Shown piece after piece: positions 34,864 to 49,796 of a stretch of 64,000 nt of DNA. The position numbers and the translations under genes are program-made. The notes under the pieces were generated by a model. That model ran no database searches and was not told the DNA's origin. It saw nothing but the letters and a program-made list of their open reading frames with translations. Numbering within the stretch: position 1 is the stretch's first letter; each line of letters opens with the position of its first letter. The stretch comes from Escherichia coli (lineage in GTDB: Bacteria > Pseudomonadota > Gammaproteobacteria > Enterobacterales > Enterobacteriaceae), in NCBI RefSeq assembly GCF_013315695.1, contig NZ_CP054353.1; one strand, 5' to 3'.

Positions 34864-35922
34864 ATGTTTTCAATGATATTAAGCGGGCTAATTTGTGGTG
34901 CTCTGCTGGGATTTGTCATGCAGCGTGGGCGTTTTTGCCTGACTGGTGGTTTTCGCGATATGTATATCGCGAAAAATAATCGCATGTTTTACGCCTTGCT
35001 GATTGCAATTTCGGTACAAAGCGTGGGGGTTTTTGCGTTAATTCAGGCGGGCCTACTGACTTACGAAGCCGGGGCGTTCCCGTGGCTTGGTACTGTTATA
35101 GGTGGGTATCTTTTCGGGCTGGGAATTGTTCTGGCGGGTGGATGTGCCACCGGGACCTGGTATCGCGCGGGTGAGGGATTGATCGGCAGTTGGATCGCGC
35201 TTTTCACTTATATGGTGATGAGTGCGGTGATGCGTTCTCCACACGCCAGTGGTTTAAATCAAACCTTGCAGCACTACACTACTGAACATAACTCTATTGC
35301 TGATACTTTTAATTTGTCTGTGTGGCCGTTGGTTGCCGTTTTGCTGGTGATAACGCTCTGGGTGGTGATGAAAGAGTTGAAGAAGCCAAAACTCAAAGTC
35401 GCGACCTTACCGCCGCGCCGAACCGGGATCGCTCATATTCTGTTTGAAAAACGCTGGCATCCCTTTGTCACAGCTGTACTCATCGGTTTGATTGCGCTTT
35501 TAGCCTGGCCCCTGAGTGAAGCAACCGGACGTATGTTTGGGTTAGGCATCACTTCCCCAACGGCCAATATTCTGCAATTTCTGGTCGCGGGTGACGTGAA
35601 ATACATTAACTGGGGCGTTTTCCTGGTGTTAGGGATCTTCGTGGGGTCATTTATTGCCGCCAAAGCGAGCCGTGAGTTCCGCGTTCGCGCTGCTGATGCA
35701 CAAACAACATTACGTAGCGGGTTAGGTGGTGTACTGATGGGCTTCGGTGCCAGCATTGCAGGTGGTTGCTCTATCGGTAATGGACTGGTCATGACTGCAA
35801 TGATGACCTGGCAGGGCTGGATTGGCCTTGTATTTATGATTCTCGGAGTCTGGACTGCGTCCTGGCTTGTGTATGTTCGACCGCAGCGTAAGGCGCGACT
35901 GGCAACTGCTGCGGCAAATTAA
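34864..35922 (+). CDS. yeeE: thiosulfate transporter YeeE/TsuA
   Basis: 352-aa membrane ORF with duplicated GGCxxG-type motifs (..LAGGCATGT.., ..IAGGCSIGN..). Confidence 0.9.
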   Translation: MFSMILSGLICGALLGFVMQRGRFCLTGGFRDMYIAKNNRMFYALLIAISVQSVGVFALIQAGLLTYEAGAFPWLGTVIGGYLFGLGIVLAGGCATGTWYRAGEGLIGSWIALFTYMVMSAVMRSPHASGLNQTLQHYTTEHNSIADTFNLSVWPLVAVLLVITLWVVMKELKKPKLKVATLPPRRTGIAHILFEKRWHPFVTAVLIGLIALLAWPLSEATGRMFGLGITSPTANILQFLVAGDVKYINWGVFLVLGIFVGSFIAAKASREFRVRAADAQTTLRSGLGGVLMGFGASIAGGCSIGNGLVMTAMMTWQGWIGLVFMILGVWTASWLVYVRPQRKARLATAAAN

Positions 35923-46484: not shown

Positions 46485-46496
46485 TGTTTGTAGTGG

Positions 46497-47747
<1,251 letters not shown>

Positions 47748-47785
47748 GTTTCCTCTGACTCGTGTCAGTCGGTCTCTGGTTGTAT

Positions 47786-47824
47786 CCACGGACCGCACTC
47801 TTGACATAAGAGTGCGGTCCGTGG
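47786..47824. repeat. perfect 17-bp inverted repeat with 5-nt loop
   Basis: ccacggaccgcactctt-gacat-aagagtgcggtccgtgg, 40 bp outside the IS3 end; no adjacent U-tract. Confidence 0.6.
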
Positions 47825-49250
47825 AAAACGGAGTTGAAAAAATGGTGTCTGAAAGAAGGTACCATCATTGCGATGACAAACACTTTGGCGTGGATAATGT
47901 AATTAATTGCTGAAATTGACCGTATATGCGGTAAGACTCATATCAGTATCAGGTCCGGTTAATTGCTGATACTGACATAAACTTTTTACAAAAGGATGAA
48001 TGCAGAAGGTTACTCTAATGGCCAGAGTGATGACAATGATGGTCAGACGTTGACCTGCAGAAACTGCATTTTAATTGGTCTATAAAGTCTGCAAGAGGAA
48101 TCAGGGTCAGATCAGTGAGTCTTATCGCGGCCCGAAGCTATGACTGAAAGAAGGCTGGATACAGAATTGCAACAATTTGGCAATGTCAGAACACAGAAGC
48201 TTTGCAAGCAGGTGAAAGGTTATGTCTAGAAAAAGGAGTATATCAGAATACATCTACTGATGTACAAAACACAACAATAGCTTCATGATATATAAATACG
48301 TGATGACGAGTGGTACTCCGCATGGTTATTTAACTTCTCAGCACCACTAATGATCCTGAGCAACTTCGTATTTGGGCCATTGCCATGGAGTAGAAAGCTG
48401 TGTCTGAGAATGCAGAATTTGAGAAAAGAATTCGCTTTCTTGGAGAGCTTCTGAAAATGGCACGCTAACAACGCTTTGTTAAAAAATGTGAATCACTTGC
48501 CGAGGCTGCATTTTCTATTCGAGGAGAATGTTGACGTAGATATTACAGAAATCTCAGCGCATCAGGATAAACTGCTACCTTAGGTCAACCACCAAAAGAA
48601 AATACAATACGTCCAGTTTGTATGCCTTTAATAACACATCTTTTAAATGTTGAAGAATTATCCCGCCTGCTGAAGAACGTTGCTCTGAGTGTGATAAACC
48701 TTTTTATTCTTGATGATGTCAGCGAGAAGATGGAATATATCCCCGACTGGGTCGTGGTTACCCGGTTAAACATCTGGTGGCGCTAATAAATCTGGCAAGT
48801 CACATTCTGTTGAATGCTGTGACAGTGCCTTACCGAGAGAGCGAAATTGTGGTGTTCTAGTGCATAGTCGCCACCATTCCGGATAATTTTATTGCGTTGT
48901 TTTACAACTTCTTTTACAGCGCAGATCTGTCGCTGACGTTGAATCAATAGCCTGGATTTCAGAACACAATGCCCGTTTGCTGGTTGGTCCGGCAGTAGCA
49001 TTAATTCATTATCTGAATGAAATGTGTCAATCCACAGAAACCGCTGTCAATGACGCATTTTGTCGGACGTTAACACGAGAAAGTCTGGCTATTCCGTAAT
49101 GCCATCTTATTTCGTAATGGATTGAGAATGCTGGATTTTTAATTATATTACGCGCAGTATTAATCGCGTAAATGTTTTGCGGTCAGCAACGGTGGGGGAT
49201 CCATTGCTCTGTTCAATGAATACCATCATACATTTGAATCAGGAGTCGGT

Positions 49251-49796
49251 ATGATGATTTTGGTGACGGGAGGCGCACGGAGCGGGAAGAGTCGCCACGC
49301 AGAGGTGCTTATTGGGGACTCTTCACAGGTTCTGTATATCGCTACCTCGCAAATCCTTGATGATGAGATGGCTGCACGGATAGAACATCATCGGCAAAGC
49401 CGCCCGGAGCACTGGCGCACAGTGGAGCGCTGGCAACATCTTGATGAATTAATTCATGCAGACATTAACCCGAATGAGGCTGTGTTGCTGGAATGCGTTA
49501 CCACAATGGTGACTAATCTGTTGTTTGATTATGGCGGCGATAAAGACCCTGATGAATGGGATTATCAGGCGATGGAACAGGCGATTAATGCTGAGATTCA
49601 GTCGTTGATTGCTGCCTGCCAACGTTGCCCCGCAAAGGTTGTATTAGTGACTAACGAAGTGGGAATGGGGATTGTGCCGGAGAGTCGTCTGGCACGACAT
49701 TTTCGTGATATTGCCGGGCGGGTAAATCAGCAGTTGGCCGCTGCGGCAAATGAAGTATGGCTGGTGGTTTCGGGTATTGGAGTAAAAATCAAATGA
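49251..49796 (+). CDS. cobU: adenosylcobinamide kinase / adenosylcobinamide-phosphate guanylyltransferase
   Basis: 181-aa [18 protein letters not shown]-loop. Confidence 0.93.

Follow-up and report, generated by a model that had tools for sequence, protein, structure and literature searches.

A pair of near-identical 18-bp direct repeats in Escherichia coli probably reflects the decay of an ISEc11-like insertion sequence fossil

Two 18-mers with a start-to-start spacing of 56 bp and 16 of 18 positions in common lie in the window, the 64,000-nucleotide stretch of E. coli DNA which was analysed in this work (Table 1). An earlier note had described this pair correctly and had offered as readings binding sites, iteron-like repeats of a decayed element, or chance in AT-rich DNA. 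The mention of a decayed element was right as to location, as both copies lie within a truncated and decayed insertion sequence of the IS1111 family. The pair itself is probably a fortuitous, non-functional similarity which arose by neutral decay of this dead element. Living relatives carry one copy only and, therefore, the pair would have arisen accidentally during decay and would not represent binding sites.

Table 1. Coordinates of the features discussed in the text (window positions unless another sequence is named).
Feature	Position	Strand	Remarks
IS3-family element, intact	46489-47746	-	26-nt imperfect terminal inverted repeats; no target-site duplication
Palindrome, 18-nt arms and 5-nt spacer	47785-47825	.	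perfect; at the 5' truncation point of the fossil
Fossil 3' end of IS1111-family (ISEc11-like) DEDD transposase gene	47795-47962	+	55 codons plus stop, internal stops
Repeat copy 1, TTAATTGCTGAAATTGAC	47903-47920	+	decayed transposase codons
Hairpin across the transposase stop codon	47943-47975	+	stem 47943-47952 with 47966-47975, 13-nt loop
Repeat copy 2, TTAATTGCTGATACTGAC	47959-47976	+	end of transposase gene and arm of the stop-codon hairpin
Fossil of the downstream non-coding region (apparently seekRNA-coding in living relatives)	47963-48207	+	blastn and alignment A1; 3' tip missing
Decayed IS66-family fragment (tnpB end, tnpC start; K-12 yoeG region)	48204-48764	+	blastn
Segments with seekRNA-type matching	L003 3161-3211; L004 3178-3210; L005 1300-1331		L005 on the minus strand

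From position 47747 rightwards, the window, which is part of an E. coli chromosome, is identical to E. coli Nissle 1917, CFT073 and many others, in the DNA between the gene of a TonB-dependent receptor and cobU. In K-12 the receptor gene is yoeA, the intact form of which we take to be hma, the haem receptor gene of uropathogenic strains. The left boundary of this conserved hma/yoeA-cobU intergenic DNA is formed by the IS3-family element, with the identity to Nissle starting at its edge. As this element joins a CP4-44-type island directly to the hma/yoeA-cobU DNA, the strain has lost its receptor gene, and a copy devoid of target-site duplication is consistent with IS-mediated deletion of hma/yoeA. 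The earlier note had also thought of a link between the motif and IS3 copies. There is none in the window, where the motif has no further copy and the neighbouring IS3-family element is a later and unrelated insertion 157 bp away.

As judged by homology, the DNA from 47795 to 48207 is the fossil of an ISEc11-like element in the IS1111 family of insertion sequences. A sensitive BLAST search with 47747-48620 gave matches of ~70% identity to mobile elements, and blastn of the non-coding part gave 68-69% identity to an E. coli plasmid (L003) and to the chromosome of a Shiga toxin-producing strain (L004). Pairwise alignment placed 47921-48207 on the final 42 bp of an IS110-family transposase gene and the non-coding DNA downstream of it in these two sequences. 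In tblastn, residues 285-337 of the L003 transposase matched 47795-47953 at 27 of 53 residues (51%), with E values of 3e-10 against a 701-nt slice and 5e-8 against the whole window, and the translated fossil in this alignment reads ALLT*ECGPWKTELKKWCLKEGTIIAMTNTLAWIM*LIAEIDRICGKTHISIR. The homology to the transposase runs upstream without gaps. No other part of the transposase gene was found anywhere in the window, and Pfam gave no hit on the fragment, whose codons lie beyond PF01548 and PF02371. In an alignment of eight sequences (alignment A1), the window is collinear with the relatives from 47795 to 48207, and the identity of the fossil to their consensus is 66% overall, 64% in the coding part and 67% in the non-coding part. 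A search for a closer intact relative in E. coli genomes and plasmids returned nothing above about 70% identity.

The living relatives were compared in six sequences, L003 and L004 from E. coli and two from Photorhabdus and one each from Serratia and Brenneria, the last four having been found, equally distant, by a pattern scan of one genome per species. The L003 transposase has 339 amino acids and carries PF01548 and PF02371; the subterminal inverted repeats of the element are GAACGCATCCC and GGGATGCGTTC (in the relatives generally GAAC(G/A)CATCCC and GGGATG(C/T)GTTC), and a long non-coding region lies downstream of the gene. This layout matches the IS1111-family arrangement exemplified by ISEc11 (PMC11187229). 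ISEc11 and its relatives, IS1111-family elements with a 3' seekRNA, have the same gene order, in which a 339-aa DEDD transposase is followed by ~270 bp of non-coding DNA (Siddiquee et al. 2024, PMC11187229). The fossil shares with the ISEc11-type elements 51% amino acid identity over 53 residues, 67% nucleotide identity in the non-coding part and the stop-codon hairpin but, unlike them, it has lost some 285 codons along with its left end and the subterminal repeat on the right.

According to the literature, the 3' non-coding region is transcribed together with the transposase mRNA and then processed to a seekRNA which guides the choice of target. In the relatives L003, L004 and L005, short non-coding segments agree directly with the left flank and, as reverse complement, with the element's first 7 bp, and a compensatory difference is seen between ATGTAAT/ATTACAT in L003 and L004 and ATGTCAT/ATGACAT in L005. 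Such matching of segments to the flank on both strands is as described for seekRNA by Siddiquee et al. (PMC11187229), and the non-coding region of this clade appears to be a seekRNA region, the use of a seekRNA by the clade being supported independently in this way. The apparent target of the relatives is GGAGAA(A)TGTAAT-like while the published ISEc11 target is GTGAAAATACTG; therefore, the relatives are called ISEc11-like and not ISEc11 itself. For the target predicted from the fossil, beginning with AGAGGAATAAGAC, no convincing site was found in the window or in the compared loci; the left end and the true flanks of the fossil are lost.

The bridge RNA of IS110/IS621 comes to mind here, as these elements belong to the same broad transposase superfamily and likewise encode an RNA that guides target choice. 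The IS110-type RNA is, however, located upstream of the gene whereas the RNA region of the fossil is downstream, which is the IS1111 arrangement. The two repeats are not guide segments, which correspond to roughly 48093-48128. It was also observed that the segments 47928-47940 and 48116-48128 are complementary at 12 of 13 positions, which is not so in the relatives. The latter segment aligns with the second seekRNA guide of the relatives and complements the 3' end of the fossil's own transposase gene; either coincidence or a former self-targeting guide could account for this.

The element is dead: its frame contains stops, one predicted RNA pair in three is disrupted and both ends are missing. 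Of the base pairs in the predicted consensus RNA, the fossil keeps 51 out of 77 while the intact copies keep 67-75. Neither subterminal inverted repeat is present, since the fossil stops at its right boundary before the right repeat (the GGGATG(C/T)GTTC of the relatives is absent) and the left end is missing. Homology and gene order are thus those of the IS1111 family and an intact transposase and terminal repeats are wanting; therefore, the stretch is a remnant and not a working member of that family.

The point of 5' truncation is marked by the palindrome. Its right arm is derived from the transposase gene and the outer 10 nt of its left arm are an inverted copy of the right arm. The tblastn homology, which begins at 47795, is mirrored on the minus strand. 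The palindrome is identical in K-12 and absent in the relatives, and it looks like a breakpoint scar of the fold-back or hairpin type. Its reading as a terminator was rejected since neither strand has a T run after it. In different E. coli strains, at least three independent IS3-family insertions were seen within ~90 bp around it, at 47746/47747, in L010 (equivalent to 47791/47792) and in H52 (equivalent to ~47836), which suggests a local insertion hot spot.

In K-12, the pseudogene yoeH (b4641) maps exactly to 47795-47953, and this pseudogene, in a region annotated as cryptic prophage CP4-44, represents the same locus as the transposase part of the fossil. Therefore, copy 1 lies inside yoeH and copy 2 starts 6 bp past its annotated end. 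The description of the surroundings of the pair as non-coding is thus half right, copy 1 being situated inside a transposase pseudogene. The K-12 annotation of yoeH names no product; here it is identified as the C-terminus of an IS1111-family transposase. The locus is, then, already annotated, and what is added is the identity of yoeH and the unannotated fossil of the seekRNA region.

The two copies occupy quite different places in the element. Copy 1 reads in frame TTA ATT GCT GAA ATT GAC (LIAEID), where the relatives have AIAAH(G/D), and it is directly preceded by an in-frame stop at 47900-47902 that replaces a Trp codon of all relatives. Their DNA at this place is GC(G/A)ATAGC(A/C)GC(C/T)CA(T/C)G(A/G)(C/A), aligned without gaps. 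Copy 1 agrees with the consensus of the relatives at 9 of 18 positions, and 22% of the 18-mers of the coding remnant score that low or lower; the divergence of copy 1 is within the normal range for the fossil. Copy 2, by comparison, agrees at 16 of 18 positions. It begins with the last base of the final codon, continues through the TAA stop (47960-47962) and ends with GCTGATACTG, which forms the hairpin's 3' arm, and all six relatives have TTAAT(C/T)GCTGATACCGAT in its place. As copy 1 falls in codons and copy 2 at the stop codon and hairpin arm, they are non-equivalent parts of the element.

The hairpin was found as an inverted repeat and is present in both the MFE and the centroid folds. Its eight core pairs do not vary among five intact relatives and are kept in the window, and the hairpin with copy 2 as its 3' arm is invariant in six relatives from four genera. 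In live elements, it presumably serves RNA processing or assembly of the ribonucleoprotein.

Conservation of the pair in related elements was not found. A match to the motif occurs once in each relative, at the position of copy 2, twice in the fossils of B2-type E. coli and once in K-12. The relatives' equivalent of copy 1 (GCGATAGCAGCCCATGAC or GCAATAGCCGCTCACGGA) agrees with their equivalent of copy 2 at only 7-9 of 18 positions (hand count in alignment A1). K-12 differs from the window by 47974 G>A and 47976 C>T, both inside copy 2, which lowers the match of the pair to 14/18, while copy 1 does not differ between the K-12 and B2 lineages. Comparison with the outgroups suggests an ancestor with a match of 15/18 (G at 47974 and T at 47976), which would have risen to 16/18 in one lineage and fallen to 14/18 in the other.

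A 111-bp stretch of the locus is present in 2,897 of 5,426 E. coli genomes and about half are without it. For the 2,836 genomes with the stretch that were compared by identity, 1,473 records have at least 99% identity and 1,372 have 95-99%, so that the two types are about equally common; in the 95-99% band, there are two mismatches each among the matches listed. The region has many different breakpoints across E. coli genomes and, with the stretch missing in half of them, the locus is dispensable. One rearrangement breakpoint is situated directly after copy 2 (47976/47977; L009 3000/3001) in many E. coli, for example in 14EC029, and unrelated DNA ending in GGAGATTCAGGGGGCCAGTCT is found to the left of it.

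Likeness between the copies ends at the edges of the 18-mers. Therefore, the pair is not a diverged 56-bp tandem duplication, which was rejected also on account of the alignment: the window and the intact relatives are gapless from 47795 to 47974, so that neither an insertion nor a duplication has taken place, and the first gap comes 2 nt before the end of copy 2. No further copies were found elsewhere in the 64-kb window. The next best match to the degenerate motif there has 3 mismatches, and shuffles are expected to hold 0.29 such matches.

The chance level was estimated with 200 dinucleotide-preserving shuffles by counting pairs of at least 16/18 at 18-100 bp spacing. The real window holds 2 such pairs against 0.08 per 64-kb shuffle, and shuffles of the AT-rich 1.5-kb region alone hold 0.002 on average. 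The second pair in the real window, also a direct one, consists of CAGCGTGGGCGTTTTTGC at 34921-34938 and AAGCGTGGGGGTTTTTGC at 35019-35036. When neutral decay was simulated for the 413-nt fossil under the fossil's own substitution matrix, P was 0.0008 for at least 16/18 and 0.01 for at least 15/18. Scaled to 64 kb, these rates become about 0.1 and about 1.5, respectively, in line with the shuffles. Within the fossil taken by itself such a pair is rare and, consequently, the argument for chance depends on correcting for the look-elsewhere effect over the whole window; locally the pair is unusual and yet about a one-in-ten-windows event for a reader who scans 64 kb by eye. It is the chance reading that the shuffles and the decay simulation favour.

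The likely course of events can be outlined as follows. An ISEc11-like element would have lost the 5' four-fifths of its length and its right tip, leaving the present fossil, and its presence across lineages points to a truncation before the E. coli lineages diverged. The sequence of copy 2 has a role in living relatives, where it contains the stop codon of the transposase gene and contributes the 3' arm to an invariant hairpin that opens the non-coding region. Copy 1, once ordinary coding DNA (W-AIAAHG/D), would have gained nine substitutions after inactivation, mostly from G/C to A/T, which happened to create the resemblance to copy 2. These substitutions were presumably independent and neutral.

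One observation is suggestive and counts against chance: the derived changes that move the copies together are 7 of 9 in copy 1 and 3 of 3 in copy 2. A hand estimate for the convergence in copy 1 is about 0.008 with equal base choice and about 0.05 with an A/T-biased choice, both computed after the pair had been selected for being similar. The changes in copy 1 that converge on the bases of copy 2 include the block TGGGC to TAATT, and one may ask if a template switch or short-patch correction rewrote copy 1 from copy 2, as a multi-base mutation with no function; we consider this unlikely. Such a templated event would turn a quasi-repeat, which ancestrally shared AT-GC-G, into a near-perfect repeat in one or few events. 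The palindrome is located 78 bp upstream and its absence from the relatives shows that at least one event of the template-switch or fold-back type took place in the stretch. The converging changes and this breakpoint palindrome therefore leave some room, albeit little, for templated mutation. Nevertheless, two mismatches (47914 and 47916) persist inside the supposedly converted tract, most of the changes are from G/C to A/T as in ordinary decay according to the substitution matrix, copy 1 is no more diverged than many 18-mers of the fossil, and no intermediate state was seen, K-12 and B2 having the same copy 1. That the near-identity is the scar of a single templated event and the palindrome a second such scar is, in our opinion, improbable; if true, template-switch mutagenesis of the E. 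coli chromosome would have left a natural record in this fossil. Less likely than the templated event is modulation by the pair of the duplex between sense and antisense RNA of yoeH.

Readings in which the pair has a function, as protein sites, iterons or an RNA switch, are contradicted by the comparative data and are, taken jointly, left with a small probability. Both strands of the yoeH locus are transcribed in K-12, where an antisense RNA sensitive to RNase III and a Rho-dependent RNAP-binding aptamer have been described (PMC6847712), and the region is listed with constitutive promoters and an H-NS mark (PMC3946193). These features, together with the phased spacing of 56 bp and, where a strain has kept hma, a distance of about 320-400 bp from the repeats down to its start, would suit recognition sites for a DNA-binding protein acting on divergent hma/yoeA or yoeH transcription. 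Nothing ties the transcripts, the aptamer or the promoters to the repeats, however. A scan for sigma-70-like promoters found none at the repeats, and shuffled versions of the region contained more sites than the region itself; a promoter reading of the -35-like TTGAC in each copy was dropped on the same ground. The canonical Fur box of hma is located near the start codon (in Nissle, L002 3871-3893), and with it the promoter region, outside the conserved block that contains the repeats. GATAATGTAATTAATTGC, immediately upstream of copy 1, was considered as a Fur box for hma and is a weak match by eye only. The window's own strain has no hma, and copy 2 was hit twice in the K-12 lineage. The iteron variant fares no better. 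Iterons of plasmid and phage origins are likewise short direct repeats (17-22 bp) in AT-rich DNA, but they form arrays of several regularly spaced copies beside a rep gene and are conserved among related replicons, whereas here there are two copies, no adjacent rep, partition or other regulator gene, relatives without the pair and a polymorphic pair within E. coli. A functional pair of recognition or iteron-like sites is, accordingly to the comparison with other genomes, already close to refuted, and we regard it as very improbable. The same low probability is given to an element acting at the RNA level, in which copy 1 would compete with copy 2 for the 5' arm of the hairpin (47942-47952) and alter RNase III cleavage or Rho termination. 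Such competition would agree with a hairpin that is strong on both strands (z-score -4.5 for the minus-strand RNA) and with the double-stranded RNA and aptamer described at K-12 yoeH (PMC6847712). On the other hand, copy 1 pairs poorly with the 5' arm (about 8/11 by hand alignment) and lies outside the predicted MFE and centroid structures, and nothing of this is conserved outside E. coli. An Rfam search of 47000-49600 gave no match at the repeats; its only matches were isrC in the IS3-family element and a chance-level miRNA on the palindrome.

With fortuitous similarity as the preferred reading, the pair matters little for biology and the gain is in annotation. yoeH can be named as a C-terminal fragment of an ISEc11-like IS1111-family transposase, and about 245 bp of unannotated DNA after it as the fossil of a seekRNA region. 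From 47795 to about 48764, the DNA between hma/yoeA and cobU consists of stacked insertion sequence fossils, first IS1111-type and then IS66-type, and is not regulatory DNA. With such annotation, the region should not again be taken for a candidate regulatory or origin-like element.

The IS66-type fragment abuts the truncated right end of the IS1111-type fossil. It has 68-73% identity to L003 1596-1818 and 3314-3643, and the plasmid matches are annotated as IS66 tnpB/tnpC. Within the IS3-family element on the other side, isrC (RF01387) has a full-length Rfam match of 145 bits at 47556-47678 on the minus strand, over the 5' end of orfA, which suggests that the 'isrC sRNA' family is largely an IS fragment. 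An annotated 'hypothetical protein' of 54 aa at 48622-48786 is found in the stretch aligned to the start of the IS66-family tnpC; for its reading as tnpC start, the sequence was judged against what we take to be typical TnpC proteins. The adjacent pseudogene at 48759-48947 is called 'IS4 family transposase' by PGAP, though the DNA up to 48764 aligns to the IS66-family tnpC; the IS4 label may be wrong, or a further fragment may follow.
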